A stretch of 64,000 bases of DNA from an uncultured Actinomycetota bacterium (GTDB lineage: Bacteria; Actinomycetota; Humimicrobiia; Humimicrobiales; Humimicrobiaceae): the NCBI GenBank assembly GCA_964616545.1, contig CAZTUA010000053.1, positions 15,061 to 79,060 of the forward strand, in the 5' to 3' direction. Both the position numbers and the translations under genes were made by a program. Each line of letters starts with the position of its first letter. Position 1 is the first letter of the stretch. Positions 5,903-55,949 of the stretch are shown piece by piece. The notes beneath the pieces were generated by a model. The model made no database searches. It was not told the origin of the DNA and saw nothing but the letters and a program-made list of their open reading frames with translations.

Positions 5903-6295
5903 TTATTCCGATGCTTTGACTTCTTCCTTCTTTTCCGGTAAAAATCTTAACTCTATGCCTCCGCTTATCCTTAAGACAACATTTACTATCCATACCATTA
6001 TAGTGCCGACAGCTGCATAGAACACTGATGCAACCAGTCCGCCCACAATTAAAACAAGAATGGTTATGATACCGCCGCCACCAAAAAAACTAAATATAGC
6101 AAGATTCCCGAGGCCAAATACATCAAAAATGCTCTTAATGTCAATCCCGGAAAAAGATAAGCCCATCCATGCAATCAGCCCTATTATTGACATTACAATT
6201 ATTGAAAACAAAAAAAACAGCAAATAAAAAAACAGCAGAAACTTAAACATTGAAGACTCACTGACACTTTTAAATACTCTTCTTTCTACGGCCAT
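5903..6295 (-). CDS. Hypothetical small membrane protein (Gly-rich TM segments)
   Basis: 130 aa ORF, three predicted TM helices; no recognised domain. Confidence 0.35.
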   Translation of the reverse strand: MAVERRVFKSVSESSMFKFLLFFYLLFFLFSIIVMSIIGLIAWMGLSFSGIDIKSIFDVFGLGNLAIFSFFGGGGIITILVLIVGGLVASVFYAAVGTIMVWIVNVVLRISGGIELRFLPEKKEEVKASE

Positions 6296-6456
6296 AAATA
6301 CCTCCCATCATAGAATGCCAGATAACTTATATTCGAGTCCTGATCAATACCAGCGTATTCAAAAACTCCATTGCTCAAATTAATCCCTTAAAACAGAACT
6401 TTTATTAGATTCTGCTTTAAAAACTTTTCGTTACGAACTCTTTAACTTTATAAAAG

Positions 6457-6939
6457 TTATTTTGTATATTTTTCTGCTAAATTTCCGAAAAATGGGAACT
6501 TGTAAAGTTCTCCCTTGTTAGCCCTTGTAACTATTATAAGCCTGATAACAAATTCTGCTATTACTACTAGCCATGCTAATACGGTAAACAGTGTCCACCA
6601 TCCTGCACCATAATATAAGAGATAAGTCCTTACCATCATCCCTCTTATTACGTTGAATAAGACTACAAAAATAATTCTTAAAACCAGACCGGCAATTCCT
6701 ACTATCATCGACTGCATTGCATGGAATTTGACATACTTATTCTCTTTTTCAAGTATGTACATTATAAGTCCTGAAAGGAAACCACCCCATCCATACAGTA
6801 ATATTCCAGCGTGTGAAATCCACATAGCTATCTTTGCATCCAGTCCTGTGGAACTCTTCTTATTAAAATCTGGATGAACTTCCGCGTTTTTCGCTTCTGC
6901 CATTTTGTTTTCCTCCTTGTTCAAATTGGCATTTTGCAA
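6457..6939 (-). CDS. DUF4870-like membrane protein
   Basis: 160 aa; motif KYVKFHAMQS followed by TM helices resembles the DUF4870 (F/V)KFHA.Q signature. Confidence 0.45.
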   Translation of the reverse strand: MQNANLNKEENKMAEAKNAEVHPDFNKKSSTGLDAKIAMWISHAGILLYGWGGFLSGLIMYILEKENKYVKFHAMQSMIVGIAGLVLRIIFVVLFNVIRGMMVRTYLLYYGAGWWTLFTVLAWLVVIAEFVIRLIIVTRANKGELYKFPFFGNLAEKYTK

Positions 6940-13447: not shown

Positions 13448-13518
13448 TTTTGAAAACAAACCGGGAAAGTTTAAGTGTTTTAAAAAATTTTCTCTGTTTA
13501 AAAAGGAAAAACTATACT

Positions 13519-14019
13519 ATGGCAATAAGGATTTCTGATTTACCGGAATATAGATTAAAAACAGAAGAAATAAAAAAAATTAACAGCATAATACAGAAAA
13601 ATCGCGGCAAAAAAGAAGCTTTAATTCCGGTACTACAGAAAATACAGAAAGATGTTGGCTTCTTATCTGTAGAAACTCAGAAAAAGGTAGCAGATGCTTT
13701 AGAGCTTCCTGAAAAGGATGTTTACGGAGTAGTGACTTTCTACTCATTCTTTTCAATGACTCCAAGAGGAAAGAATAATATAAGAGTCTGCCTTGGGACT
13801 GCATGTTTTGTAAAAGGCGGTAAAAAAATATTAGATAAGATAATAAGAGAATTAAAAATCAAACCGGGCCAGACCACCTCCGATAGAATATATACCCTGC
13901 AGGTTAATCGTTGTCTTGGAGCATGCGGACTTGCTCCAATAGTTGTGATAAATGATAAAATTTTTCAGAAGGTAAATCCTGAAAAAGTTATGGATATAAT
14001 ATATTCTTATAAAAAATAA
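13519..14019 (+). CDS. NuoE-like thioredoxin-fold [2Fe-2S] subunit (FdsG/HndA-type)
   Basis: Cys motifs CLGTAC and CLGACGLAP; ALIPVLQKIQ N-terminal NuoE block; ATG at 13519 chosen over upstream in-frame TTG at 13450 because the latter overlaps the putative promoter. Confidence 0.75.
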   Translation: MAIRISDLPEYRLKTEEIKKINSIIQKNRGKKEALIPVLQKIQKDVGFLSVETQKKVADALELPEKDVYGVVTFYSFFSMTPRGKNNIRVCLGTACFVKGGKKILDKIIRELKIKPGQTTSDRIYTLQVNRCLGACGLAPIVVINDKIFQKVNPEKVMDIIYSYKK

Positions 14020-14074
14020 AAAATATTCTTTTAAATTACCCTGATATCCGGGCTTTAAAAAGAAGAGGTTTAAT

Positions 14075-15790
14075 TTGTTGAATAAGAAACCGATAAAAAT
14101 AAAAACAAAAGATGATCTTTTTAAAATAAAGAAAGAAACAACTAAAAAAAAGAATCTGAGCTCTTCAGGAACAGGATACAGAATAACGGTACACCTTGGA
14201 ACATGCGGTATCGCTTCAGGTGCTGATATTATAAAAGACCGGGTAAAAAAAGAACTAAATTTAAGAAATAAAAGTAGCATTGATTTTACCACTTCCGGAT
14301 GTGTGGGATTCTGTGCCCTGGAGCCGATGTTAACCATTGAATCATACCATATGGGGCCTGTTATTTATCATAGCCTTGATAAAGATAAAGTTAAAAGGAT
14401 CTTTAATGCACACATAGACAATGGAAAAATACTGGAAGAACTTGAACCCATAACAGAAGATTCCCCGCTCTCAAACTTTTATAAATACCAGGAATCCCGT
14501 GTTTTAAGAAACAGGGGGAAAATAGACCCCTTTAAAATTGAAGATTATATCACAAATGATGGATATCTCGCGCTCGCAAAAGTTATTGAGAGCGGCAGTC
14601 CTGAAAGAATAGTAAAAACTATTTCAGAATCAGGCCTTCGCGGCCGGGGAGGAGCAGGCTTTCCCACGGGAGCCAAGTGGGAGTTCTGCAGAAAGGCTCA
14701 ATCAAAAAATGGAGTTAAATATGTAATATGTAACGGTGACGAAGGGGACCCCGGTGCTTTCATGGACAGGAACCTGCTTGAATCAGATCCGCATTCTATC
14801 CTTGAAGGAATGATTATTGCAGCTTATTCAATTGGTTCAAATAAAGGTTATCTTTATATAAGAGCGGAATACCCTCTTGCAGTAAAAACAATGAAGCATG
14901 CAATAAGTCAGGCAAAAAATTATGGCCTTATAGGGAAAAATATACTGAACAGCGGCTTTAATTTTGAAGTTGAAATATATGAGGGCGCAGGAGCATTTGT
15001 ATGCGGCGAAGAAACCGCACTTATAAATTCAATTGAAGGTAAAAGAGGCATGCCCAGACCCAAACCTCCTTATCCTGCAAATGAAGGACTTTTTGGAGAG
15101 CCTACTCTTATAAATAATGTTGAAACCCTATCAAATATCCCACAGATAATCCTGAAGGGAGCTAAATGGTTCAGCAGCATCGGGACTGAAACAAGTAAAG
15201 GAACCAAAATATTTGCTCTTGCAGGAGCTGTTAAAAATGTGGGTCTGGTTGAAGTTCCTATGGGAATGACCTTAAGGGATATCATTTATAAAATTGGAGG
15301 TGGGATACCTGAGGGAAAAAATTTTAAAGCAGCGCAGTTCGGGGGGCCATCGGGAGGATGCATACCCCGCAAATTTTTAGATATACCTATTGATTACGAA
15401 AAAATAAAAGAGGCAGGTTCTATTATGGGCTCCGGCGGGATGATAGTTATTGATGAAGAAACCTGTATGGTAAACCTTGCAAGGTATTTTATGGATTTTA
15501 TTCAGGATGAATCATGCGGCCAGTGTGTCCCATGCAGAATAGGGACCAGAAGAATGCTGGAAATTTTAGAGAAAATAACACAGGGCAAGGGCAGTGAAGA
15601 CAGTATTGAAAAACTTGAAAAATTATCAGCTGTTATTAAAGAAACTTCTCTCTGTGGATTGGGAAAAACCGCCCCAAATCCTGTAATGAGCACTATAAAA
15701 TATTTTAGAGAAGAATTTGAAGAACATATCAGAACCCAAAAATCATGCAAAAGGCTTCATGCAAAAAAAGAAAAAAGTATAAAAACATAA
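14075..15790 (+). CDS. NuoF-like NAD(H)/FMN-binding subunit with N-terminal [2Fe-2S] domain (FdsB/HndC-type)
   Basis: 571 aa; GRGGAGFPTGAKW FMN/NADH site, ESCGQCVPCR 4Fe-4S motif; apparent TTG start after AGAAGAGG RBS; lacks C-terminal 2x[4Fe-4S] ferredoxin extension. Confidence 0.8.
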   Translation: MLNKKPIKIKTKDDLFKIKKETTKKKNLSSSGTGYRITVHLGTCGIASGADIIKDRVKKELNLRNKSSIDFTTSGCVGFCALEPMLTIESYHMGPVIYHSLDKDKVKRIFNAHIDNGKILEELEPITEDSPLSNFYKYQESRVLRNRGKIDPFKIEDYITNDGYLALAKVIESGSPERIVKTISESGLRGRGGAGFPTGAKWEFCRKAQSKNGVKYVICNGDEGDPGAFMDRNLLESDPHSILEGMIIAAYSIGSNKGYLYIRAEYPLAVKTMKHAISQAKNYGLIGKNILNSGFNFEVEIYEGAGAFVCGEETALINSIEGKRGMPRPKPPYPANEGLFGEPTLINNVETLSNIPQIILKGAKWFSSIGTETSKGTKIFALAGAVKNVGLVEVPMGMTLRDIIYKIGGGIPEGKNFKAAQFGGPSGGCIPRKFLDIPIDYEKIKEAGSIMGSGGMIVIDEETCMVNLARYFMDFIQDESCGQCVPCRIGTRRMLEILEKITQGKGSEDSIEKLEKLSAVIKETSLCGLGKTAPNPVMSTIKYFREEFEEHIRTQKSCKRLHAKKEKSIKT

Positions 15791-15808
15791 ATTCTATTTT
15801 TATAAGAT

Positions 15809-18511
15809 ATGAAAAATTCAAGTAATAAAATAAAAATTACCATTAACAGCAAACCCTATTACTGCTCGCCGGGATGCAGTGTTCTTGAAGCCTGTCTTGA
15901 GAATAATATTTTTGTTCCCCACCTGTGCTATGACCCGAGACTCAAATCTCAGGGAGCATGCAGGCTCTGCGTTGTTGAGATAGAAGGAATGCCGGAAGCA
16001 GCTGCTTCGTGTGTAACACAGGTAAGAGAAGGAATGAAAGTCAGGACAGACACCCCCCGCATAAGAGAGCTCGTAAAAACAAATCTTGAGCTGATAATAT
16101 CAGACCATCCTCTTGATTGCATGACCTGTGAGTCATCAGGAGATTGCATGCTGCAGGACCTTGCTTATATTTATGGCATTAAAGAAGTTCCATATAAGGG
16201 GAAAATCCATGAAAAGAAAGTTCTTGAAGATAATCCCTTTATACTAAGAGATAACCAGAAATGCATACTCTGCGGCAGATGTGTAAGAATGTGTGATGAA
16301 ATTGTGGGAGCCAGCGCCATTGGTTATGCCGGTAGGGGCTTTGAGAGTGAAATAGTTCCCGCATTTGAACAATCATTAAAAGAAACAGACTGTGTATTCT
16401 GCGGTAATTGCATCTCAACCTGCCCATCCGGCGCACTGCAGTCAAAACCTTACGCTGGCAAAGCCCGCATCTCCGGAACAGAAAAAATTCAGACCGTCTG
16501 CCCCTACTGCGGAGTGGGCTGTATAATTGATCTACATATCAGGAATAATAAAATTGTAAATGTAACCTCGGAAGTAGGAAAACATGTAAATAAAGGCAGT
16601 CTCTGCGTTAAAGGAAAATTCGGGCATGAATTTGTAGACAGCCCGGAAAGGCTTAAAGATCCCCTGATAAAAACACGGGACAGCGGATTTAAAAAAATAA
16701 GCTGGGAGAAAGCAATAGAAACTGTTTCGGACAGGCTGAGGACAATAAAGGATAAATACGGACCTGACTCTGTTGCTGTTTTAAGCTCTGCGAAGTGTAC
16801 AAATGAAGAAAATTTTTTAATGTCTAAATTAGCCCGGGCTGCAATCGGGACCAACAACATAGACCACTGCGCCCGCCTCTGCCATGCATCAACAATCACC
16901 GGTCTGGTGCAAACTTTTGGAAGCGGAGCAATGACAAATTCAATTGAGGATATAAAATGCGCTGATGCTGCTATAATAATCGGTTCAAATACAACGGAAG
17001 CTCACCCTGTGATAGGATATGAGATTATAAGGTGTGTTCAGGAAAATGGACTGAAACTTATCGTAATAGACCCGAGAAATATTCCCATAACAAAATATGC
17101 AGCTGTTCACCTGAGGCAAAAACCTGGAACTGATACTGCTGTTATTCTGGGAATTATAAAACTTATCTATGAGAACAATCTGCATGATAAAAATTTTATT
17201 GAAACAAGAACTGAACTTTTTGATGATTTTATAAAATGTTTTTCATCGTATACCCCCGAAAAAGTAGCAAAAATCTCCGGAGTTAACATTGCAGATCTTG
17301 TAAAGGCCGCGGATATTTATGGATCAGCAGAGAATGCTTCCATATTTTATGCAATGGGAATCACCCAGCATACATCCGGCACAGATAATGTCGTAGCCCT
17401 TGCAGACCTTGCGCTGCTTACCGGTAATATTGGCAGAAAAGGTACGGGTGTTAATCCATTGAGAGGCCAGAATAATGTACAGGGTGCATGTGATATGGGT
17501 GCGCTGCCGGACCTGCTGAGCGGTTATCAGAGTATTGAAAATGACGAATTGAGGTTGAAATTTGAAAATAAATGGTCAGTGAGTTTACCTGCTAAAAAGG
17601 GTCTGACCGTAACCGAGATCATTGACGGGGCATATTCGGGCAGCATTAAAGCTCTTTATATAATGGGCGAAAATATAATGCTCAGTGACCCTGATTTATT
17701 ACATGTGGCCGCAGCCCTGAAGAAACTTGAATTCCTGGTTGTCCAGGATATTTTCCTGACAGAAACGGGAGAGTTTGCCGATATTGTCCTGCCTGGAGCA
17801 TGTTTTGCAGAAAAAGACGGTACATTCACAAATACAGACAGGAGAATCCAGAGAGTCAGAAAAGCCATTGAGCCTCCAGGTAATTCTATGGCTGACTGGG
17901 AAATTATCAGTATGCTCTCAAACCGCATGGGTTATCCTATGAGCTATAACCACCCTTCGGAGATTATGGATGAAATTGCTTCTCTTACGCCAATATACGG
18001 AGGTATAAATTATAGTAGAATTGATATTGAAGCTTTACAATGGCCCTGCAGGAACTATAGTGACACAGGAACAGATATTCTTCATGTAGATAATTTTACA
18101 AGAGGCAGAGGTAGATTTATTCCCTTCGGGTATTCCCCTCCTGCTGAGACCCCGACCGGTGATTACCCCTTTATTCTTACTACCGGAAGAATTTTATACC
18201 ATTTCCACACCAGAACGATGACCGGCAGGGTTAGCGGTTTAAATGAAATTGCCCCGATAAATCTTGTCCAGATAAATGAAGATGATGCAAAAAGTCTTAA
18301 AATTAAAAGCGGAGATACCGTGGAAGTTAGCTCAAAAAGGGGAAAAATTACTGTATCATCACTGGTAAGTCCGAAAATAAAAAAAGGAGTTGTATTTATA
18401 CCGTTTCATTATGCAAGCTCTCCTGCCAATCTCCTGACCAACCCGGCTCTGGACCCCAGAGCAAAAATACCGGAATTTAAGGCCTGTGCCGTAAATTTAA
18501 GAAAAATTTAA
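15809..18511 (+). CDS. fdhA: Formate dehydrogenase catalytic (alpha) subunit, Mo/W-bisPGD, NAD-linked FdsA/FdhA-type, cysteine variant
   Basis: 900 aa; N-terminal NuoG-like 2Fe-2S + 4Fe-4S domains, MopB domain; active-site context HCARLCHAS has Cys at the position that is Sec in selenoenzymes (no in-frame TGA). Confidence 0.85.
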   Translation: MKNSSNKIKITINSKPYYCSPGCSVLEACLENNIFVPHLCYDPRLKSQGACRLCVVEIEGMPEAAASCVTQVREGMKVRTDTPRIRELVKTNLELIISDHPLDCMTCESSGDCMLQDLAYIYGIKEVPYKGKIHEKKVLEDNPFILRDNQKCILCGRCVRMCDEIVGASAIGYAGRGFESEIVPAFEQSLKETDCVFCGNCISTCPSGALQSKPYAGKARISGTEKIQTVCPYCGVGCIIDLHIRNNKIVNVTSEVGKHVNKGSLCVKGKFGHEFVDSPERLKDPLIKTRDSGFKKISWEKAIETVSDRLRTIKDKYGPDSVAVLSSAKCTNEENFLMSKLARAAIGTNNIDHCARLCHASTITGLVQTFGSGAMTNSIEDIKCADAAIIIGSNTTEAHPVIGYEIIRCVQENGLKLIVIDPRNIPITKYAAVHLRQKPGTDTAVILGIIKLIYENNLHDKNFIETRTELFDDFIKCFSSYTPEKVAKISGVNIADLVKAADIYGSAENASIFYAMGITQHTSGTDNVVALADLALLTGNIGRKGTGVNPLRGQNNVQGACDMGALPDLLSGYQSIENDELRLKFENKWSVSLPAKKGLTVTEIIDGAYSGSIKALYIMGENIMLSDPDLLHVAAALKKLEFLVVQDIFLTETGEFADIVLPGACFAEKDGTFTNTDRRIQRVRKAIEPPGNSMADWEIISMLSNRMGYPMSYNHPSEIMDEIASLTPIYGGINYSRIDIEALQWPCRNYSDTGTDILHVDNFTRGRGRFIPFGYSPPAETPTGDYPFILTTGRILYHFHTRTMTGRVSGLNEIAPINLVQINEDDAKSLKIKSGDTVEVSSKRGKITVSSLVSPKIKKGVVFIPFHYASSPANLLTNPALDPRAKIPEFKACAVNLRKI

Positions 18512-18535
18512 AATTTATAACGGTAAAATAAAAAT

Positions 18536-19363
18536 TTGAAAAGTAAAATCCCGGACCCCGGGGAAAAAATTAAAATTCAAAAGATTAAAGCTTCCTCCGG
18601 CAGGTTAGATTTCCTTGATATTATACCCCGTGAAGTTCTCTGTTCAATTTCATTAAACAGCCATACCGTTTCCACAGTTTCATGTTCTCCTGTTAATCTA
18701 ATTGAGCTTGCTGCCGGCTACCTGATAAATAACGGTTATATCAAGAATTACTCTAATATCAAGCTTCTAAAGATTTGCAGCTATGATAGAACCGGCACAA
18801 TCGGAAGCAATGATTTATCCTTAAGAGTAGAAGTAGAAGCGGCATCAACCGGTTATGAAGGTAAACAATCCCGCAAACCTGAATCCATACTGCCAGAATG
18901 CAGCAGTATTGATGATTTTATTTCAAAAAAACGCTTAAAAAAAGTGGGAAGCAATCTCAGAGTTTCTTACAATATTATTTTAGGGTTGAATATGAAAATG
19001 GTGAACAGCCAGAAATATAAAAAAGAATTTGGAGGATTGCACAGTGCAGCTTTGTTTGATAAAGATGGAAGCCTTATAAATACCATAGAGGATATTGGAA
19101 GGCACAATTGTATTGATAAAATTGCAGGCTATATTTCTATAAAAGGCCTGCCCTCCGATAATAAGATTATATTCACTTCAGGAAGACTGAGCATTGACCT
19201 CGTATCCAAAATATGCAAAATGAAAATTCCGTTTATTATTACAAACTCATCTGTAACTTTAGGTTCCGCTATCCTTGCAAAAAAAATGAATCTAACCCTT
19301 ATCGGTTATGCACGGGGCGGCAGGTTTAATATTTATTCATCTCCACGGAGAATAACAAAGTGA
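18536..19363 (+). CDS. fdhD: Formate dehydrogenase accessory sulfurtransferase FdhD
   Basis: 275 aa; conserved GRHNCIDK motif and overall FdhD architecture; immediately downstream of fdhA. Confidence 0.8.
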   Translation: MKSKIPDPGEKIKIQKIKASSGRLDFLDIIPREVLCSISLNSHTVSTVSCSPVNLIELAAGYLINNGYIKNYSNIKLLKICSYDRTGTIGSNDLSLRVEVEAASTGYEGKQSRKPESILPECSSIDDFISKKRLKKVGSNLRVSYNIILGLNMKMVNSQKYKKEFGGLHSAALFDKDGSLINTIEDIGRHNCIDKIAGYISIKGLPSDNKIIFTSGRLSIDLVSKICKMKIPFIITNSSVTLGSAILAKKMNLTLIGYARGGRFNIYSSPRRITK

Positions 19364-20262
19364 GTTTTACTGGAATAATTCTTGCAGGCGGCAGAGGGAG
19401 CAGATTTGGCTTAGATAAATTAAAACTCAGTATTGGCAGCGTGCCGCTTATGGTAGACCAGATTTTCAAACTTAGTTTTTTTTGTGATGAAATAATAATA
19501 AGTACTTCAAACAGGCAATACCCGGTCATTTCTTCAGAAATAAGTAAAATTGATTCATATAAGAAAGAATATAATTTTGACACTATAGCTGCAGCCGTAC
19601 CAGAAAAAGAATTTAATGTTTTTATTAAAAGGATTACACAACATCCGAACATAAAAATTATTTCTGATGAATACAATTTTAAAAATACACATATAAAAAA
19701 TGTTTTAAATGTCAGAAATATTAATAGCCCTGCCGAAAGACCAAATGAGGTATATAAAGAATGCGGACCAATAATGGGCATTTATTCGGGTCTCGTAAAT
19801 GCAGCTTACTTCTATTCTATTGTTACAGCATTTGATATGCCTTTTATTTCTTATAAGCTATTAAAATTTCTTACTGATGAATCCAGAACCGATACCGGGC
19901 ATGAAGTTACCGATAGTTACAGTAAAACATATTGTTCCGCAGATAGAAGAGACGCATGCATAATTAAAGGAGAAAAGGGGTTTGAGGTACTCTGTGGATT
20001 ATACTCAAAAAACTGCACCGGTATTTTAAAAAAAAATATCGAAATGCATAAATACAAAATATCAGATATTTTTAATTATCTTAATATGGAAATAATTACG
20101 GAGAAAAAATTGAGACTACCCGGGATTGACAATCTTAATTTTTTTAATATAAACTGGTTAGAAGACTATCTTAAATTTAAAAAAATATTACAGGATAAAA
20201 AAAATATTATGGGGTCATATAATACTTTTACAGACGTCTGGAATAATTTCTTTTTTAGATAA
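19360..20262 (+). CDS. mobA: Molybdenum cofactor guanylyltransferase MobA-like protein with C-terminal extension
   Basis: N-terminus GIILAGGRGSRFGLDKL matches MobA nucleotidyltransferase fold; 300 aa is ~100 aa longer than canonical MobA; 4-bp overlap with fdhD. Confidence 0.6.
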   Translation: MSFTGIILAGGRGSRFGLDKLKLSIGSVPLMVDQIFKLSFFCDEIIISTSNRQYPVISSEISKIDSYKKEYNFDTIAAAVPEKEFNVFIKRITQHPNIKIISDEYNFKNTHIKNVLNVRNINSPAERPNEVYKECGPIMGIYSGLVNAAYFYSIVTAFDMPFISYKLLKFLTDESRTDTGHEVTDSYSKTYCSADRRDACIIKGEKGFEVLCGLYSKNCTGILKKNIEMHKYKISDIFNYLNMEIITEKKLRLPGIDNLNFFNINWLEDYLKFKKILQDKKNIMGSYNTFTDVWNNFFFR

Positions 20263-20272
20263 TTCTATTGGA

Positions 20273-20659
20273 TTAATTAAGTTCAGCAAATACCAGTATA
20301 TAGCCATTACAATCCCTGACAATAAATTCAACAGCACCGTAATCAGTTTTATAAATACCTTTTATGACTTCTACTTTATTTTTTATTCTATTATATATCT
20401 CCACAGCATTTTCTGTTTCTATATAAATAACCATGGTTCCACCGGTTTCCATATTACTAAATTCAGGAATTGACCCGGTCAGACTATCTCTTGACTGAAA
20501 CATAATATCATTGTCTTCACATGTTACCAGAGCCCACTCAAACTTACCTTTCCCGGGATTAGAGGCAACTAAATCAAAACAGCATAAAATATCCATATAA
20601 AAATCTACAGTTTTATTTACATCATCTACCATCATATTAGGCGTAATTTTTTTCAACAT
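20273..20659 (-). CDS. VOC (glyoxalase/bleomycin-resistance) family protein
   Basis: ~128 aa from ATG at 20659 (MLKKITPNMMVDDVNKTVDFY...) with VOC beta-alpha-beta pattern; upstream in-frame GTG at 20713 less likely; start uncertain. Confidence 0.5.
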   Translation of the reverse strand: MLKKITPNMMVDDVNKTVDFYMDILCCFDLVASNPGKGKFEWALVTCEDNDIMFQSRDSLTGSIPEFSNMETGGTMVIYIETENAVEIYNRIKNKVEVIKGIYKTDYGAVEFIVRDCNGYILVFAELN

Positions 20660-20705
20660 CTTACTTTTTACACCTCCTCTCGAGTTAAAGATAACCGGGG
20701 GAAGA

Positions 20706-21329
20706 TTAATCACTTACCTGTGGAATTCTCTCTATGCCATAATTTGAAGGAAATACTCCTGTCGGGCACAGGTCCATGCATTCCATGCAATTTTCACAAT
20801 ATTTAAAGTAAGCAGATTCCGGAATAAATACAACCTTTTTATCTGTTCCCCTTCCAACAAATCCTATTGCATTATTTCTCTTAACTTCCCTGCAATACCT
20901 CACGCACAGGCCGCATAGAATGCAGTAATTATTTTCCTTCCTGAATCTTGTCTCGCTTAAGCCATACTTTTTTGCCAGCTTTTTTATTTCTGGATTGAAC
21001 GGAAATAATTCAAGGTACAGTTCAACAAGATTTTTTCTTATCTGTTCTACTTTTGGACTTTCGGTATGAACTATAAGCCCTTCCTCTACCGGATAGGCAC
21101 AGGAAGCAACTATTTTCGACCTTCCATTTTTCTCTATTTCTACAATACACAGCCTGCAGGCGCCATAGGGTTTTACTTTCTCGTGATAACACAGTGCGGG
21201 AATATGAATGCCAATTTTTTTTGCTGCTTTCAGTATGGTACTATTCTTATCTACGCCGACCTTCTGGCCGTCTATATTAATATTAATTTTCTTCTTATCT
21301 GAACTCTCTTTTTTTTCATTCATAATCAT
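20706..21329 (-). CDS. NuoG N-terminal-like ferredoxin: [2Fe-2S] + multiple [4Fe-4S] binding domains, no catalytic domain
   Basis: 207 aa; CYHEKVKPYGACRLC 2Fe-2S motif, CxxCxxC.C and CENCMECMDLCP 4Fe-4S motifs; resembles the N-terminal electron-input module of FeFe hydrogenase/FdhA/NuoG. Confidence 0.7.
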   Translation of the reverse strand: MIMNEKKESSDKKKININIDGQKVGVDKNSTILKAAKKIGIHIPALCYHEKVKPYGACRLCIVEIEKNGRSKIVASCAYPVEEGLIVHTESPKVEQIRKNLVELYLELFPFNPEIKKLAKKYGLSETRFRKENNYCILCGLCVRYCREVKRNNAIGFVGRGTDKKVVFIPESAYFKYCENCMECMDLCPTGVFPSNYGIERIPQVSD

Positions 21330-21373
21330 ATTCCCCCGGTTATAAAATGTTATTAAAATATTTTTTTATGGTC

Positions 21374-23311
21374 TTACTGTCCACCAGAGTCCGCCATACC
21401 TTTTACTTCTTCTTTCACTTCCTCTTCCTCCAGACCCGAACCCGTTTTTACATCAATTGCGCTGTATTTTTCCGGACAGGCTTCAATACATGAACCGCAC
21501 TTGATGCATACTTTGCTGTCTATTGCATGCGGCTTTTTATCCTCTCCGCTTATCGCGCCTACCGGACACACCTTTACACAGCTTCCGCAGCCGGCACATT
21601 TATCAGCATTTATGACATAATTTATTAAAGGCAGACATACCTTTGCAGGACAGGTATTGTAATAAATATGTGCCTCATATTCCTCCCTAAAATACTTTAG
21701 TGTTGTAAGTACTATATTCGGGGCAGTGGCTCCCAGGGCACACATGGAAGCTTCTCTAAGCAATAATGATAAATCTGCCAGAAGTTTTAGATCCTCCTCA
21801 CGACCTTTCCCTTCCATTATTCTTTCATAGATATAAATCATCTGTCTCAGGCCCTCCCTGCAGGGAACACATTTCCCGCAGGACTCATCGGCCAAAAATT
21901 TTAAGAAATAATGGGCTACATTTACCATGCAGGAAGTTTCGTCCATTACTACCATACCCCCTGAACCCATCATTGATCCTGCTTCTGTCAGTGCATCAAA
22001 ATCTACCGGCAGGTCAAGAAGCTGCTCTGGTATTACCCCGCCAGAAGGGCCCCCGGTCTGTACCGCCTTAAATTTTTTATTATCCTTTATTCCTCCACCA
22101 ATTTTATAAATAATATCCCTCAAGGTAGCGCCCATGGGTACTTCAACCAGTCCAGTATTTTTTACCTTGCCGACAAGAGAAAATATTTTTGTACCGCTGC
22201 TTTTTTTTGTTCCGATACTTCTAAACCAGCTGAATCCATTTTTAATAATTAACGGGACATTTGCGAATGTCTCTACATTATTTAAATTGGTTGGTTTTCC
22301 CCACAGACCACTTATAGAGGTATGTATATATTTCAATCTGGGTTCTCCCACACTGCCTTCAATCGCAGCAACAAGAGCGCTTGATTCTCCTGATACATAT
22401 GAGCCTGCCCCTCTATGAATTTTTAAATCAAAATCAAACCCCGAATTTAAAATATTTTTACCTATAAATCCATATTCTTCAGCCTGTTTAATTGCTATAT
22501 TTACATTTTCCACCGTTACAGGATATTCCTGCCTGACATAAATAAATCCTTTATTAGAGCCTATGGCATATGCTCCTATTATTAATCCTTCCAGAACGCT
22601 GTGCGGATTCCCTTCCAGTATTCCTCTATCCATATAAGCACCGGGGTCACCTTCGTCAGCATTGACAATTATATATTTTGGTTCACCTTCTGCATTCCTC
22701 GTAGTCTCCCATTTAATGCCAGCCGGAAAACCTCCTCCTCCCCGGCCCCTCAGGTTAGACTTCTTAACCTCTTCAATAACTTCTTCAGGACTCATCCTCT
22801 CAAGAACCTCTGCAAGAGCCTGGTATCCTCCAATCCTTATATAATCATCAATGCTCCCTGAATCTATCTTCAGGTGGCTATCCATAAGAACTCTTTTCTG
22901 GTACTTATAAAAAGGGATATCTGATTCTTTTTTAATTGGTTCCCCATCACTATCTTTATAAAGGAGCCTTTCTACTATTTCACCTTTTAAAGTTTTCTGG
23001 ATTATCTCTGCTATATCCTCCCTTTTTACCCTCAGGTAACAGACGTCCTGCGGGTATACCACCATAATCGGCCCCATTTCGCAGTACCCGTGGCAGCCCG
23101 TTCTCCGAATAATGATTTTATCTCTGTATTTTGAATGGTTTTTATTTATTTCATCAACCATACTGCTGTAAATGTCTCCTGATGAATAAGCTTTACATCC
23201 AGGCCCGTTGCACAGAGAAAATATTATATCAGCACTTTTTAATTCATCCTGCAGCTTATCTGCTTTTTTTTGCAAATCCTTAAGAGAATTTATTTTATTG
23301 CTGTCAGCCAT
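21374..23311 (-). CDS. NuoF-like flavoprotein of the electron-bifurcating HydB type (N-terminal 2Fe-2S plus C-terminal 2x[4Fe-4S])
   Basis: 645 aa; GRGGGGFPAGIKW, ESCGKCVPCR, plus N-terminal CNGPGC..GCHGYCEMGP and C-terminal CAGCGSCVKVCP / CIKCGSCIEACP ferredoxin motifs. Confidence 0.8.
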   Translation of the reverse strand: MADSNKINSLKDLQKKADKLQDELKSADIIFSLCNGPGCKAYSSGDIYSSMVDEINKNHSKYRDKIIIRRTGCHGYCEMGPIMVVYPQDVCYLRVKREDIAEIIQKTLKGEIVERLLYKDSDGEPIKKESDIPFYKYQKRVLMDSHLKIDSGSIDDYIRIGGYQALAEVLERMSPEEVIEEVKKSNLRGRGGGGFPAGIKWETTRNAEGEPKYIIVNADEGDPGAYMDRGILEGNPHSVLEGLIIGAYAIGSNKGFIYVRQEYPVTVENVNIAIKQAEEYGFIGKNILNSGFDFDLKIHRGAGSYVSGESSALVAAIEGSVGEPRLKYIHTSISGLWGKPTNLNNVETFANVPLIIKNGFSWFRSIGTKKSSGTKIFSLVGKVKNTGLVEVPMGATLRDIIYKIGGGIKDNKKFKAVQTGGPSGGVIPEQLLDLPVDFDALTEAGSMMGSGGMVVMDETSCMVNVAHYFLKFLADESCGKCVPCREGLRQMIYIYERIMEGKGREEDLKLLADLSLLLREASMCALGATAPNIVLTTLKYFREEYEAHIYYNTCPAKVCLPLINYVINADKCAGCGSCVKVCPVGAISGEDKKPHAIDSKVCIKCGSCIEACPEKYSAIDVKTGSGLEEEEVKEEVKGMADSGGQ

Positions 23312-23357
23312 TTTGAACCTTCCTCTTTATTTGTTTAAAATTCTTATATTTTTATTT

Positions 23358-24344
23358 TTAGTTAAATTGTTTTAATATTTTTTTCAATTCACCTGTAGAG
23401 GGATTGCTATAATACTTATTGCCTATCATTGCCACCGGACCCAGCGCACAGCAACCAAGACAATTAACCGTGCTTAAAGCAAACTTATAATCACCCGTGG
23501 TGTCTCCGGGTTTTATTCCCAGGATATTCACAATTCTCTGGAGCAGTTTCATTGCCCCCCTTACATGGCAGGCTGTGCCCATGCAAACTACAATTTGATT
23601 TCTGCCCTGCGGCTCCAGATTAAAATACTTATAAAAAGTAGTGATACCATAGATACTGGTAAGGGGGACGTCCAGTCTGTTGCTTATATACAGTAGAATG
23701 TGTTTTGGGAGCCACCTGTACTCGTTCTGGATATCAAGCAGTATCTGAATTAAATCACTTCTACGGTCATCATAGTTATTTATTATTTTATCTACTTTTC
23801 CAAAATCTTTTATTGCATCTTCCAATGCCCACTCCTTTTCTCTTTTTACTTTTTTTAAATCACCGAGCCATTCGGTTAGCTGACTCTGAATAGCGTTTAT
23901 TCTTTCCATATCCGCATAATTTTTCCGGGTACTTTCATAATTGAAATCTGGAGGATTTTCAGCATAAAATTCTGTATCTCTTTTAATGTTAGTTTCTTTT
24001 TTAACCTTTTGCTGTTTAATCTTCTCTTCTTTATAATCCTTACTGCGCCGGGCAATATCCAGGCCTGTTTTTATCCTATATACTGCCCTGTTATTCTCAT
24101 AACCCGCTTTTTCTATCACGCCCTCTTTTTCCAATAATTTTAAATTTCTATAAACCGTTGCCTGGCCTATTTTTGGATATTTCCTGTGCGATAATAAAAA
24201 TAGCTCTTCGGCACTTAGATTTTTGCTATTTTCCAGAAAGGTTTCCAGTAAGATTATCCGGGTCCCTGTAAGTCTTAAACCGCTGCTTTTAATCTTCTGC
24301 TTATACTTGCCGATATTTTTCTTACCGGCTTTTCGTGTACTCAT
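23358..24344 (-). CDS. Fusion protein: Fur-family winged-helix DNA-binding domain + NuoE-like [2Fe-2S] thioredoxin-fold domain
   Basis: 328 aa single ORF; residues ~20-95 GLRLTGTRIILLETF..LSAEELF..IGQATVYRNLKLLEKEGVI align with Fur DBD (E. coli GLKVTLPRLKILEVL..VSAEDLY..IGLATVYRVLNQFDDAGIV); Lys/Glu-rich linker; C-terminal half carries NuoE motifs CMGTAC and CLGCCALGP; no Fur metal-site His cluster. Confidence 0.75.
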   Translation of the reverse strand: MSTRKAGKKNIGKYKQKIKSSGLRLTGTRIILLETFLENSKNLSAEELFLLSHRKYPKIGQATVYRNLKLLEKEGVIEKAGYENNRAVYRIKTGLDIARRSKDYKEEKIKQQKVKKETNIKRDTEFYAENPPDFNYESTRKNYADMERINAIQSQLTEWLGDLKKVKREKEWALEDAIKDFGKVDKIINNYDDRRSDLIQILLDIQNEYRWLPKHILLYISNRLDVPLTSIYGITTFYKYFNLEPQGRNQIVVCMGTACHVRGAMKLLQRIVNILGIKPGDTTGDYKFALSTVNCLGCCALGPVAMIGNKYYSNPSTGELKKILKQFN

Positions 24345-24375
24345 TTTTTTAAATCTGACTGATTATATAATATTA

Positions 24376-24416
24376 GTGATAATGATAATGATTATCATTA
24401 TGATATATGATAATAC
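24376..24416. promoter_or_regulatory. Fur-box-like operator (GATAATGATAATGATTATCATTATGATATATGATAAT) in the promoter of the Fur-DBD::NuoE gene
   Basis: Seen directly: three to four overlapping GATAAT/ATTATC hexamers nearly identical to the classical Fur box GATAATGATAATCATTATC, 30-70 nt upstream of the minus-strand start codon. Confidence 0.55.
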
Positions 24417-24545
24417 TACCAGTTTTTATTTTGTCAATCTTTTTTATTTTTCGGACCAATTAAGCAGATAAGGAGAGGTTTTGTAAAAGTATAATTAGAG
24501 AGGTGCGATTTATGAAAACATTCTGTTTGCGTGGCTCCTAAAAGA

Positions 24546-25352
24546 TCAATAGATTATTACTTTCACGCCGAGCGGCAGCATCTCATACAGCCACCTGGCA
24601 TTTTCCACTTCCAGCCTGATACATCCATGGCTGGCAGGGCTTCCCAGCTTTTCGTATTCTTCCTCAATTATATTATTGTCTCCATCAAATGGGACACTGT
24701 GAAATAGATACTCATTATAAAATCTTACCCAGTGATAGGCTCCCATACTGTACTTTTTGGACCAGAAATATCCACCTTTATGTGTGGTCTTAAACTCTCC
24801 TACTGGAGTCGGCTTCTCATCCGTCCCCCCGGAGCATATCCATTCTTTTAACAGATTATCATTGTAATATATCAGAACCTTCTGGCTGCTTAGATCCACT
24901 TCTATCCTGAAATTGTCGCTGTCGCTGTAATCAACCTCTATTGTATTATCCTGAGAAGGATTATTACTTTCTTCTCTTATTTCTCCGCTGCCTGGCTGTT
25001 CCTTTTCTTCCATGATATTATCCTCTATAATTTCCTCTTCCTGATTTATTTCTTCCTCCCGATTTTTCATAGCGGTTCCACTTTCGAAATTACCTTCGCC
25101 TCCGGTTATCTCCTGTGGCTCTGGAAAAACCGGGCTTCCGGTACCGGCTACATAATCTCCTTTAAACTCTTCATTTCCTGCTGCAGAGATGTCAGTGCTG
25201 CCAATCCTGGCCGCTGCAGGCTTTCCTGTTATTATTCCGGTATTATCCGTGCATGAAATACAGATAACGCCGGCAAATATGAGAACCAGCAGGAGAATGG
25301 CTGCATTAATCCATGGCCTTATATTTCTTTTTATAAATTTAATCAATTCCAA
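24546..25352 (-). CDS. L,D-transpeptidase (YkuD domain) with N-terminal membrane anchor and Glu-rich linker
   Basis: 268 aa; catalytic HxxxxxxSHGCIRL motif near C-terminus. Confidence 0.7.
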   Translation of the reverse strand: MELIKFIKRNIRPWINAAILLLVLIFAGVICISCTDNTGIITGKPAAARIGSTDISAAGNEEFKGDYVAGTGSPVFPEPQEITGGEGNFESGTAMKNREEEINQEEEIIEDNIMEEKEQPGSGEIREESNNPSQDNTIEVDYSDSDNFRIEVDLSSQKVLIYYNDNLLKEWICSGGTDEKPTPVGEFKTTHKGGYFWSKKYSMGAYHWVRFYNEYLFHSVPFDGDNNIIEEEYEKLGSPASHGCIRLEVENARWLYEMLPLGVKVIIY

Positions 25353-25562: not shown

Positions 25563-26402
25563 ATGGCAAAAAATATTATTAAAGCAGACGGTACTGCAGA
25601 ACCTTATAACGAAGAAAAGGCAAGGTTATCTTTTTTAAAAGCCGGTGCTTCACAGAAAGTAGCCAGACGCGCCGCAAGAGAGCTTACCGGCTCAATAAAA
25701 AACAACATGACAACCACACAGATTTATGACAGAGCCCTTCACCAGCTGGAAAAGCTTGAGCCAAAATCTGCACTCAGGTATTCCCTTAAAAAAGCTATTA
25801 TGGATATGGGGCCGGAAGGGTTTGTTTTTGAGAAATATATAGCAAAAGTTTTACAGGAATATGGCTATAATGCTGAAGTTGGGCAATTCGTAAAGGGGTA
25901 TTGCATTGAGCACGAGGTTGATGTTATAGCAAAAAAAGAAGGTAAAATTTACATGATTGAGTGCAAGTACCGGAATTCGCCGGGGACAAAATCTGATGTG
26001 CAGACCGCGCTTTATCTAAACAGCAGATTTATGGATATAGAAAAAGCCTTTATAAAAAAAAATGGCATAACCGGCGGTTCTATCGAAGGCTGGCTGGTTA
26101 CCAATACAAAATGTACCTCTGACGCAAAAAAATACGCCCGCTGTGTCGGCTTAAAAATAATGGCCTGGCAATATCCTGAAGTTGAAAACCTTCAGTATTT
26201 TATAGAATCAAAAAAACTCTATCCTTTAAGCATCCTTCGTACAATTACGGGAAAACAAAAAGTAAAACTTTTTAATTCTAATATTATCCTCGTAAAAGAA
26301 CTCTTTAATTTTAAAATGGAAAGCCTTTCGGGGCTCTTATCAATAAACTACCAGAAAGCTGAGAATATTCTCCACGAATCAAAGATACTCATGCAGGATT
26401 AA
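25563..26402 (+). CDS. ATP-cone domain fused to PD-(D/E)xK (Mrr-like) restriction endonuclease-fold domain
   Basis: 279 aa; N-terminus IIKADGTAEPYNEEKARLSFLKAGAS is an ATP-cone; middle region FEKYIAKVLQEYGYNAEV..DVIAKKEGKIYMIECKYRN matches Mrr_cat D..ExK. Confidence 0.6.
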   Translation: MAKNIIKADGTAEPYNEEKARLSFLKAGASQKVARRAARELTGSIKNNMTTTQIYDRALHQLEKLEPKSALRYSLKKAIMDMGPEGFVFEKYIAKVLQEYGYNAEVGQFVKGYCIEHEVDVIAKKEGKIYMIECKYRNSPGTKSDVQTALYLNSRFMDIEKAFIKKNGITGGSIEGWLVTNTKCTSDAKKYARCVGLKIMAWQYPEVENLQYFIESKKLYPLSILRTITGKQKVKLFNSNIILVKELFNFKMESLSGLLSINYQKAENILHESKILMQD

Positions 26403-55309: not shown

Positions 55310-55810
55310 TTATTTTATTTCTTCAAATACTTCTTCTGGGTTGCCGCACACAGGGCATTTCCCCGGTGCTTCACCCTCTACTGTATTCCCGCAGACCCCG
55401 CATACAAATATGGGTGTATCAGGATTATTTCCGAGGTTTTCCAGGTATTTCTTATAAAGACCGGCGTGTATTTTTTCTACTTTATTTGCATAAGTAAAAC
55501 TTATTTTTGCTTCATTTTTATTTTCATTTCTGGCATCCTCAATCATTTGCGGATACATCTTTTCAAATTCAAATGTCTCACCATCAATTGCTTCTTTTAA
55601 ATTTTGACCTGTTGACTTAACTCCGTCCATTGCATTCAGGTGATTTAATGCATGAACAGTCTCCGCTTCTGCGGCAGCCCGAAATAATTTTGCCACCTGA
55701 TGATAGCCCTCCTGTTCAGCTTTTTCTGCAAAAGCCACATATTTTCTATTTGCCTGAGATTCTCCTGCAAAAGCATCCATCAAATTTTTTATAGTATTAT
55801 CGCCTGCCAT
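55310..55810 (-). CDS. Rubrerythrin (ferritin-like diiron domain + C-terminal rubredoxin-like CxxC..CxxC)
   Basis: 166 aa; ExxH diiron ligands and C-terminal CGVCGN...CPVCGNP; GGAGG RBS. Confidence 0.85.
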   Translation of the reverse strand: MAGDNTIKNLMDAFAGESQANRKYVAFAEKAEQEGYHQVAKLFRAAAEAETVHALNHLNAMDGVKSTGQNLKEAIDGETFEFEKMYPQMIEDARNENKNEAKISFTYANKVEKIHAGLYKKYLENLGNNPDTPIFVCGVCGNTVEGEAPGKCPVCGNPEEVFEEIK

Positions 55811-55949
55811 ATTTTCTCCTCCCGCTTATTAACAAATTTACGTATTTCTATCTCTATATTCTATTCTTTTATATAATAATTGTTATCACTAATCAAATAA
55901 ATTCAATCAAAACTTGAAAAAAAACCTATATTGGGTCAAAATTTAATAC

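Follow-up and report, generated by a model that had tools for sequence, protein, structure and literature searches.

Fur, PerR, Zur, and the other Fur-family regulators are metal- or peroxide-gated dimers in which an N-terminal winged-helix DNA-binding domain (DBD) is followed by a C-terminal dimerization and metal-binding domain. In IscR, NsrR, RsrR, SoxR, and FNR, a DBD and an iron-sulfur (Fe-S) cluster share one polypeptide, and the cluster lies in or next to the dimeric regulator fold, which it reshapes directly. In PutA, a trigger enzyme, a redox flavoenzyme polypeptide carries an N-terminal DBD and has operators in its own control region; its switch is the reduction of the flavin, which drives membrane binding. 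HydABC-type enzyme complexes are dimers or tetramers of heterotrimers. The BfuABC family was defined by Schut et al. in 2022, with a BfuBC core described as invariant and a BfuC C1 cluster domain that moves with NAD(H) binding (PMC9304861). Here, we analyzed a stretch of 64,000 nucleotides (nt) from an uncultured Actinomycetota bacterium of the Humimicrobiaceae (GenBank assembly GCA_964616545.1, contig CAZTUA010000053.1, positions 15,061 to 79,060), referred to below as the window. It carries a gene in which a Fur-type DBD is joined to an enzyme subunit of the BfuC/HydC/NuoE type, with a Fur-box array over the gene's own promoter. The product is probably a PutA-like, self-repressing enzyme subunit that acts on its own operon through this box.

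The fusion protein is a member of the NuoE/BfuC family and, in function, most resembles the PutA-type trigger enzymes. With BfuC, HydC, and NuoE it shares a complete PF01257 domain, four cysteine ligands, and the genes that follow, which encode BfuB and a small BfuA; it differs from them by approximately 190 additional N-terminal residues, which comprise the DBD, a linker, and a long helix. With Fur, PerR, and Zur it shares the fold and sequence of the N-terminal winged helix, including residues that align with the DNA-contacting positions of Magnetospirillum Fur (MgFur), and its operator is a classical Fur box (TGATAAT-N-ATTATCA or GATAATGATAATCATTATC) placed over the promoter, as in autoregulated fur genes. 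The whole C-terminal dimerization and metal domain is missing, however, so that only half a family member is present. The arrangement of an N-terminal DBD on a redox flavoenzyme polypeptide, with operators in its own control region, is that of PutA, but the enzyme is an FeS/FMN NADH oxidoreductase subunit instead of a proline dehydrogenase, the DBD is a Fur winged helix, and the flavin-reduction switch has no evident counterpart. A DBD and an Fe-S cluster occur in one polypeptide, as in the IscR-, SoxR-, and FNR-type factors, but the cluster of the fusion sits in an enzyme-subunit domain that is attached to the DBD by a disordered tether.

The fused gene is a single uninterrupted open reading frame (ORF) (Table 1). 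A preliminary description of the locus, made from the sequence alone, had proposed that this ORF joins a Fur DBD to a complete NuoE-type domain, and a hidden Markov model scan bears this out, with both Pfam domains above cutoff in one polypeptide. The FUR match (amino acids [aa] 21 to 93) scores 51.9 bits against a cutoff of 23.1 and covers positions 2 to 75 of a 121-position profile, i.e., the DNA-binding half only. The 2Fe-2S_thioredx match (aa 184 to 327) scores 158.5 bits and covers positions 1 to 144 of 145. Both cysteine pairs are kept in the NuoE-like half, as the same description had noted, and C254, C259, C295, and C299, which make up the four ligands of the cluster, do not vary among the 72 fusion proteins that were aligned. 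A single-chain AlphaFold2 (AF2) model built on 72 homologues contains a confidently predicted winged helix (aa 10 to 91, with an H-H-H-H-E-E topology predicted for aa 5 to 91), a disordered segment (aa 95 to 141; predicted local distance difference test score [pLDDT], <50), a helix (aa 136 to 189), and a NuoE fold (aa 190 to 328).

The same fusion was found in other genomes. Both domains are present in one protein in 119 of the 120 best clusters formed at 90% identity (hence in at least 119), which come from independent assemblies and extend down to 45% identity. This recurrence rules out a frameshift or missed stop between the two halves, a doubt that the preliminary description had raised, and by this comparison the fusion is real and old. 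The named sources of the clusters are mostly Actinomycetota metagenome-assembled genomes, including "Candidatus Hydromicrobium americanum" and "Candidatus Humimicrobiaceae" (both of the class "Candidatus Humimicrobiia"), and two clusters, P0079 and P0107, carry the label Nitrososphaeraceae archaeon. The proteins are currently annotated as "NADH-quinone oxidoreductase subunit E," "NAD(P)H-dependent oxidoreductase subunit E," or "hypothetical." Across the 72 aligned fusions, pairwise identity reaches 71% for the NuoE domain, 53% for the long helix, and 49% for the Fur domain but only 13% for the linker, which is 16 to 90 aa long. The Fur domain, so much better conserved than the linker, is under purifying selection. 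A split version occurs at one locus, L093 (approximately positions 5992 to 6879), where an in-frame stop in the variable linker separates a Fur-domain ORF of 113 aa from the NuoE part; upstream of the split gene, the Fur box is intact, and the gene comes after a CooC-like gene. A sequencing error, a pseudogene, or a natural division of the gene could each account for the split.

The closest solved sequences to the Fur half are iron-Fur proteins, namely, 9ire (E = 1.7e-9) and MgFur (4raz), and the matches in the Protein Data Bank (PDB) range from 1.7e-9 to 1e-5. Compared with Escherichia coli Fur by pairwise BLASTP, the fused domain is collinear, with one gap, and is 31% identical and 60% similar over 75 residues; the earlier statement that the two align almost residue for residue was therefore too strong. 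T26, R29, A62, T63, Y65, and R66 are invariant in the 72 fusions, and R or K occupies position 24 in 71 of them. In the alignment with MgFur, R24 corresponds to Lys15, T26 to Thr17, R29 to Arg20, T63 to Thr54, Y65 to Tyr56, and R66 to Arg57. In the crystal structures of MgFur on the Fur box, where two dimers bind per 19-bp box, Tyr56 and Arg57 read bases, Arg57 touches a conserved G, and the R57A substitution abolishes binding, while Lys15 reads the narrow minor groove and Thr17, Arg20, and Thr54 hold the backbone (PMC4506495). The invariance of the residues aligned with these contacts argues that the domain has been kept for DNA binding.

The sensing half of Fur, by comparison, is gone. That the C-terminal domain is absent had been recognized in the preliminary description, and both the end of the Pfam match and alignment with E. 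coli Fur, Bacillus subtilis PerR, and full-length neighbors agree with it. Residues 1 to 189 contain one His and no Cys, with neither the CxxC pairs of a structural Zn site nor the His/Glu regulatory sites. Direct switching by Fe2+, Zn2+, or peroxide, as known from other family members, is therefore precluded, and dimerization must come from elsewhere. As far as the sequence comparison goes, DNA reading is preserved, whereas Fur's own metal switch and dimer interface have been lost.

The operator lies 30 to 69 nt upstream of the ATG, directly downstream of a strong sigma-70-type promoter element, the best match of its kind in the region, and covers the region from the −10 hexamer to the expected transcription start. 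To judge from this placement, the box stands in a repressor-type position. GATAATGATAATGATTATC at positions 24378 to 24396 shares 18 of the 19 bases of the 19-bp Fur consensus, and a second match overlaps it at 24384 to 24402. These two are the only sites with three or fewer mismatches in the 64 kb, where 0.14 would be expected. Scored with a position weight matrix (PWM) built from the fusion-promoter sites, the array of the window reaches 31.4, 24.8, and 19.3 bits on the minus strand, and no further site in the window attains 14 bits. The two-fold symmetry of the inverted-repeat core implies a dimeric binder.

To determine how general this arrangement is, 21 fusion loci with upstream DNA were compared (L001 to L006, L081, L082, L084, L087 to L093, L096 to L099, and the window), with approximately 10 kb of flanking DNA on each side of each fusion gene. 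One of these, L098, is cut by a contig end after the Fur domain, so that its second half is unverified. The promoter and the Fur-box array are found at the same position in 21/21 loci, and the remaining intergenic DNA is divergent. The shared layout consists of TTGAC(A/T), a spacer of 16 to 17 nt, a TATAAT-like −10 element, and then three to six hexamers with the 7-1-7 core, which has 0 to 2 mismatches in the 20 loci aligned. Two loci (L084 and L099) have a second site upstream of the −35 element. The PWM gives the fusion-promoter sites 18.7 to 31.4 bits and, across the 237.6 kb of DNA from fusion loci, finds no site of 14 bits or more outside these promoters. The 756 kb surrounding 74 orthologous modules with a nonfused C subunit contain one PWM match of at least 12 bits and no 19-mer with three or fewer mismatches. 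Among the nonfused set is an actinomycetotal module (L007) whose plain C subunit is encoded inside an acs operon and has no promoter of its own. The Fur domain and the Fur box co-occur strictly; they are found together or not at all.

Several statements of the preliminary description can be assessed against these data. It had placed a Fur box upstream of the gene itself, as is found, and had taken autoregulation to be implied, which the presence of the box at every fusion promoter and its absence around the nonfused orthologues strongly back at the level of sequence. Its concern that the GATAAT repeat might be a common AT-rich element is dispelled, since the box is unique in the 64 kb and, outside the fusion promoters, in 238 kb of related loci. 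Control of the neighboring formate dehydrogenase operon, which had also been suggested, is not borne out; that operon has its own NuoE and NuoF, and no Fur-box-like site was found at its promoter or elsewhere in the window.

The enzyme half belongs to a conserved three-gene module. In the PDB sequence search, the NuoE half is closest to HydC of the electron-bifurcating HydABC hydrogenases of Thermoanaerobacter kivui and Thermotoga maritima (8a6t and 7p5h; E, ∼1e-40), and the top Foldseek matches are BfuC/HydC chains, including the C subunits of WOR-Bfu, Nfn-ABC, and Stn. The next gene encodes a BfuB-like flavoprotein with the Pfam domains 2Fe-2S_thioredx (aa 28 to 106), Complex1_51K, SLBB, and NADH_4Fe-4S and two C-terminal Fer4 motifs. 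It is followed by a BfuA-like protein of 207 aa that consists of only the FeS domains of NuoG/HydA. A glyoxalase/VOC-fold gene is probably the last gene of the bfuC-bfuB-bfuA operon. Two features by which the Bfu family has been delimited (PMC9304861), a BfuB with a NuoF core and extra FeS domains beside BfuC and a BfuA with [2Fe-2S] and [4Fe-4S] domains, are present, and by sequence the module matches the BfuABC family with a minimal BfuA. No catalytic domain for a third substrate, as in electron bifurcation, was found inside the operon.

In related loci, the C subunit is followed by BfuB orthologues that are 57 to 86% identical, and the three-gene module recurs, with B subunits mostly 57 to 65% identical, in Dehalococcoidia, Desulfobacterota, Acidobacteriota, Bacillota, Geobacter, and others. 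The fusion is the sole C subunit in every fusion locus examined and must therefore serve the enzyme. Of the two roles that the preliminary description had offered, that of the gamma subunit of the adjacent NuoF/NuoG-like module is thus the one that holds, and a detached redox or iron sensor is unlikely on the same evidence, since the module, which has orthologues in many phyla, encodes no other C subunit.

The N termini of C subunits in other phyla bear on the role of the Fur domain. Orthologous C subunits of approximately 238 to 268 aa, all annotated as NuoE and forming more than 120 clusters, are common in Syntrophobacteraceae, Thermodesulfovibrionales, Chloroflexota, Acidobacteriota, and archaea. 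They begin with a conserved module of approximately 45 residues, KxKSxFVGVRxTEEQxxxLSxLQKxSxLSKTDILLRGLExLxEYY, which is followed by the same long helix as in the fusion. Pfam matches of this module to ribbon-helix-helix (RHH) families are subthreshold (RHH_3, E = 0.017; NikA-like, E = 0.045 to 0.07), and a profile search of PDB sequences with the module found nothing. The topology predicted by AF2, an extended segment and two helices, fits an RHH fold. From the residue pattern, the subthreshold matches, and the predicted topology, the module is probably, although not provenly, an RHH domain, in which case these orthologues resemble the RHH arrangement of PutA even more than the Fur fusion does. 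Upstream of the genes for RHH-like C subunits, just after a promoter-like element and thus where the Fur box lies in the fusion loci, is a perfect palindrome, GTTAAAC-N-GTTTAAC. With at most one mismatch, it occurs six times in 1.45 Mb of DNA, in all cases approximately 20 to 35 bp before such genes.

A response-regulator receiver (REC) domain occupies the same N-terminal position in C subunits of Acidobacteriota, Planctomycetota, Myxococcota, and some Dehalococcoidales (L013, L019, L027, L028, L033, and L042). After it come a remnant of the second RHH-like helix and then the long helix, which is homologous in the RHH-like and REC-fused orthologues. The BfuC proteins of four dehalococcoidial loci (L020, L021, L025, and L032; 219 to 226 aa) have a further kind of N-terminal extension, e.g., '...VLTRISDELGIPVSQVSQM...', which may be likened to a helix-turn-helix or to a duplication of the NuoE helix pair. 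By comparison of these sequences, the N terminus of the C subunit is a recurrent site for regulatory modules, and where the module is of a DNA-binding type, the type of operator changes with it. No other indirect argument speaks as strongly for autoregulation by the subunit as this change of operator with module. We tentatively extend the argument to a clade of Bfu-type enzymes in anaerobic bacteria and archaea whose C subunit may be a sequence-specific DNA binder with a matching operator at its own promoter, RHH-like in many phyla and Fur in "Candidatus Humimicrobiia"; the state of the enzyme (assembly, cluster, or NAD(H) redox state) would then be signaled directly to transcription. Such a clade is possible, but we hold the proposal with some reserve.

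We consider it fairly likely that the subunit represses its own operon in the following manner. The C subunit of a three-subunit, BfuCBA-type NADH-dependent FeS flavoenzyme, bearing the Fur winged helix at its N terminus, would bind the Fur-box array over the −10/start region in dimeric or higher oligomeric form, on its own or within the assembled enzyme. Two or more Fur domains would be paired by the conserved long helix, the oligomeric enzyme, or both, and the occupied array would repress the bfuC-bfuB-bfuA(-glyoxalase) operon. We infer that it is the fused domain, rather than another Fur-family protein, that occupies the box; that binding there represses transcription; and that the DBDs pair in one of these ways. 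The helix of aa 136 to 189, in which the hydrophobic periodicity peaks at 3.5 residues over approximately aa 143 to 166, is in the model a candidate for dimerization or docking. Since two Fur dimers can sit on one 19-bp box, a multivalent enzyme on the hexamer array is plausible. The signal could be the amount of subunit or complex, which would give simple negative feedback and is the simplest function, or the protein might leave the DNA upon a change in enzyme assembly, cluster, or NAD(H)/redox state. State-dependent release, set off by loss or reduction of the cluster or by the movement that NAD(H) induces in the C subunit, is attractive but unsupported.

Some points weigh against self-repression by the subunit. 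The dimerization domain of Fur is missing even though the operator is two-fold symmetric, and dimerization through the helix or the enzyme is only presumed. The long, variable linker, disordered in the model, is difficult to reconcile with allosteric control by the FeS domain and speaks against tight coupling. Many ordinary fur genes are themselves preceded by a Fur box at the promoter, so that the box of the fusion could have been inherited from an ancestral fur promoter and could be served by another Fur paralogue with a nearly identical recognition helix. Binding by the fused domain rests on sequence comparison in uncultured organisms, and the DNA compared spans approximately 10 kb on each side of each fusion gene, so that a canonical Fur and further members of the regulon may lie outside it.

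The alternative that follows from these points is that a separate full-length Fur-family regulator, either a canonical iron-Fur encoded elsewhere in the genome or a Cys-rich paralogue encoded nearby, occupies the box and places the operon in a metal or peroxide regulon, with the fused domain acting as a competitor, as an anti-repressor, or as a binder elsewhere. In a metagenome scan, this box and its distance to the start were often shared by canonical fur genes (e.g., L111, L136, L144, L146, and L094/95), and a full-length Fur-family gene adjoins the fusion operon in L005, L081, L082, L084, L092, L096, L097, and L099, where the recognition helix of the paralogue, ATVYRTLELL, nearly equals that of the fusion. 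The adjacent paralogue has a distinct near-palindrome of its own, however, ATAGTAACAATTATTACTAT, which occurs once per locus at the promoter of the paralogue and nowhere else in the 1.45 Mb, and in the window and its closest relatives the box is present with no paralogue beside the operon. In addition, the box is found in 0/74 nonfusion orthologous loci, although many of those phyla use Fur, and a Fur regulon in which iron-loaded Fur represses an iron-rich enzyme would be contrary to the usual logic. The distinct operator of the paralogue, the paralogue-free loci that retain the box, and the invariance of the residues aligned with Fur DNA contacts therefore favor the fused domain as the binder, and we regard occupation of the box by a separate Fur protein as unlikely.

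Even less probable in our estimation is that the protein is a free-standing redox or iron sensor in which the state of the [2Fe-2S] cluster gates DNA binding, as in SoxR or IscR, over a wider regulon that includes formate dehydrogenase. Intact cluster ligands, the movement of the C1 cluster domain of BfuC with NAD(H) binding (PMC9304861), and the formate dehydrogenase or CODH/ACS genes that recur as neighbors would agree with such a sensor. The protein is nevertheless the sole C subunit where the B subunit needs one, in an enzyme whose BfuBC core is invariant (PMC9304861), and the gene trio is orthologous to modules with plain C subunits; moreover, neither the formate dehydrogenase promoter, the rest of the window, nor the 238 kb of related loci has a Fur-box-like site, and a disordered linker of variable length speaks against direct allostery. 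Finally, the promoter, box, and DBD resemble the first half of an autoregulated fur gene joined to bfuC, and the Fur domain might be a nonbinding relic of that fusion, with box and domain decaying or co-opted for protein contacts. The in-frame stop in the linker of L093 would fit decay, but domain and box have been kept down to 45% protein identity while the linker was randomized to 13%, with the residues aligned with Fur DNA contacts invariant, so that a relic is very improbable. Self-repression through the fused domain is the reading that we retain.

Two possible origins of the fused domain were considered. The adjacent Cys-rich paralogue and the fused domain share approximately 28 to 30% identity, which does not exceed the figure for E. 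coli Fur, and a recent local duplication is therefore not supported. An ancestral fur-bfuC gene pair was not found either, in that the closest canonical Fur (L094/95; 45% identity) is not encoded beside Bfu genes. In the window, tblastn with E. coli Fur and B. subtilis PerR found no canonical Fur, a search in which E. coli Fur missed even the fusion at an E value of ≤10. The Cys-rich paralogue itself is encoded beside the operon in at least eight of the more distant fusion loci (L081, 9033 to 9518, minus strand; L082, 13906 to 14394; L084, 13593 to 14048; and others). It has 151 to 162 aa, two CxxC pairs, and three more conserved Cys, and it lacks the His-rich site. A weak site in the window, ATATAATAATTGTTATCACTA (positions 55871 to 55891; 11 bits with the Fur-box matrix), lies upstream of a rubrerythrin gene (55310 to 55810, minus strand) and has the core AACAATTATTA in common with the operator of the Cys-rich paralogue. 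There are hints here that the paralogue is a PerR-like regulator that is present elsewhere in the genome from which the window comes.

Recurrent neighbors of the module are formate dehydrogenase genes (window, L002, L089, and L091) or CODH/ACS genes (L081, L084, and L093), which points to a role around the Wood-Ljungdahl pathway. In the window, a formate dehydrogenase operon (13450 to 20262, plus strand) converges on the bfu operon, an arrangement shared by the closest relatives, and encodes its own NuoE (189 aa) and NuoF (571 aa), FdhA (900 aa), FdhD, and MobA. It is of the FdsGBA type, i.e., NAD linked with its own diaphorase subunits, and its NuoF lacks the C-terminal ferredoxin domain. In actinomycetotal relatives, the BfuCBA module lies in or beside CODH/ACS clusters (L007, 3938 to 7450; L081, 1 to 9030; and L084, 14136 to 20876). 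A 279-aa protein with an ATP-cone and an Mrr/PD-(D/E)XK nuclease domain is encoded on the plus strand of the window at 25563 to 26402 and is conserved beside a YkuD gene in L001 and L088. The coordinates of the fusion gene, its operator, its operon, and the palindromes of the RHH-like loci are collected in Table 1.

Table 1. Features of the fusion locus (window coordinates) and palindromes at loci with RHH-like C subunits (coordinates of each locus)
Feature	Position	Strand	Basis or remark
Fur-DBD/BfuC (NuoE/HydC-like) fusion gene	23358..24344	-	328 aa, uninterrupted ORF, ATG start, both-domain architecture
Fur-type winged-helix DNA-binding domain (aa 16-93)	24066..24299	-	Pfam FUR; PDB relatives; AF2 pLDDT ~80-88
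Linker (aa 94-135), disordered, Lys-rich, nonconserved	23940..24065	-	pLDDT <50; 13% pairwise identity
Long conserved amphipathic helix (aa 136-189)	23778..23939	-	AF2 single helix; 53% pairwise identity; 3.5-residue hydrophobic periodicity
NuoE/HydC/BfuC thioredoxin-like [2Fe-2S] domain (aa 190-328)	23361..23777	-	Pfam; ligands C254, C259, C295, C299
-35 hexamer TTGACA	24432..24437	-	Best promoter-like match in 20000-24700 (11/12 with -10)
-10 hexamer TATTAT, 16-nt spacer	24410..24415	-	Same 11/12 promoter match
Fur-box array, overlapping 21-bp sites, GATAAT/ATCATT hexamers	24374..24406	-	Fur consensus 19-mer and PWM
7-1-7 inverted-repeat core TGATAAT-N-ATTATCA	24383..24397	.	Perfect match TGATAATNATTATCA; two-fold symmetric
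BfuB/HydB-like flavoprotein, 645 aa	21374..23311	-	Pfam; N-terminal [2Fe-2S] thioredoxin-like domain, NuoF FMN/NADH core, C-terminal 2x[4Fe-4S]
Minimal BfuA/HoxU-like FeS subunit, 207 aa	20706..21329	-	Pfam Fer2_4 and Fer4_Nqo3/Fer4; without catalytic domain
Glyoxalase/VOC-fold gene	20273..20713	-	8-nt overlap with bfuA end; glyoxalase gene also downstream in L091
GTTAAAC-N-GTTTAAC sites	L008 7030; L010 6783; L011 6792; L012 3357; L015 6788; L036 3229		Variants in L018, L026, L029

No description of a Fur-, RHH-, or REC-fused NuoE, HydC, or BfuC was found in the full-text literature searched, and the paper on the Bfu family (PMC9304861) makes no mention of DNA-binding or receiver-domain extensions of BfuC. 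If the subunit binds its own promoter, the Fur family would have gained a new input logic in which the sensing and dimerizing half has been exchanged for a redox-enzyme subunit, and this would be the first Fur-family domain with an enzyme instead of a metal site as its input. The principle of PutA would then extend to electron-bifurcating enzymes, with a first indication that enzymes of the Bfu/HydABC type, which hold a central place in acetogenic, syntrophic, and subsurface metabolism, control their own synthesis by way of a subunit. The finding is of interest for work on Fur regulators, on Fe-S sensing, and on electron bifurcation alike, and the RHH-like and receiver versions in other phyla suggest that the N terminus of the C subunit is a general regulatory port.

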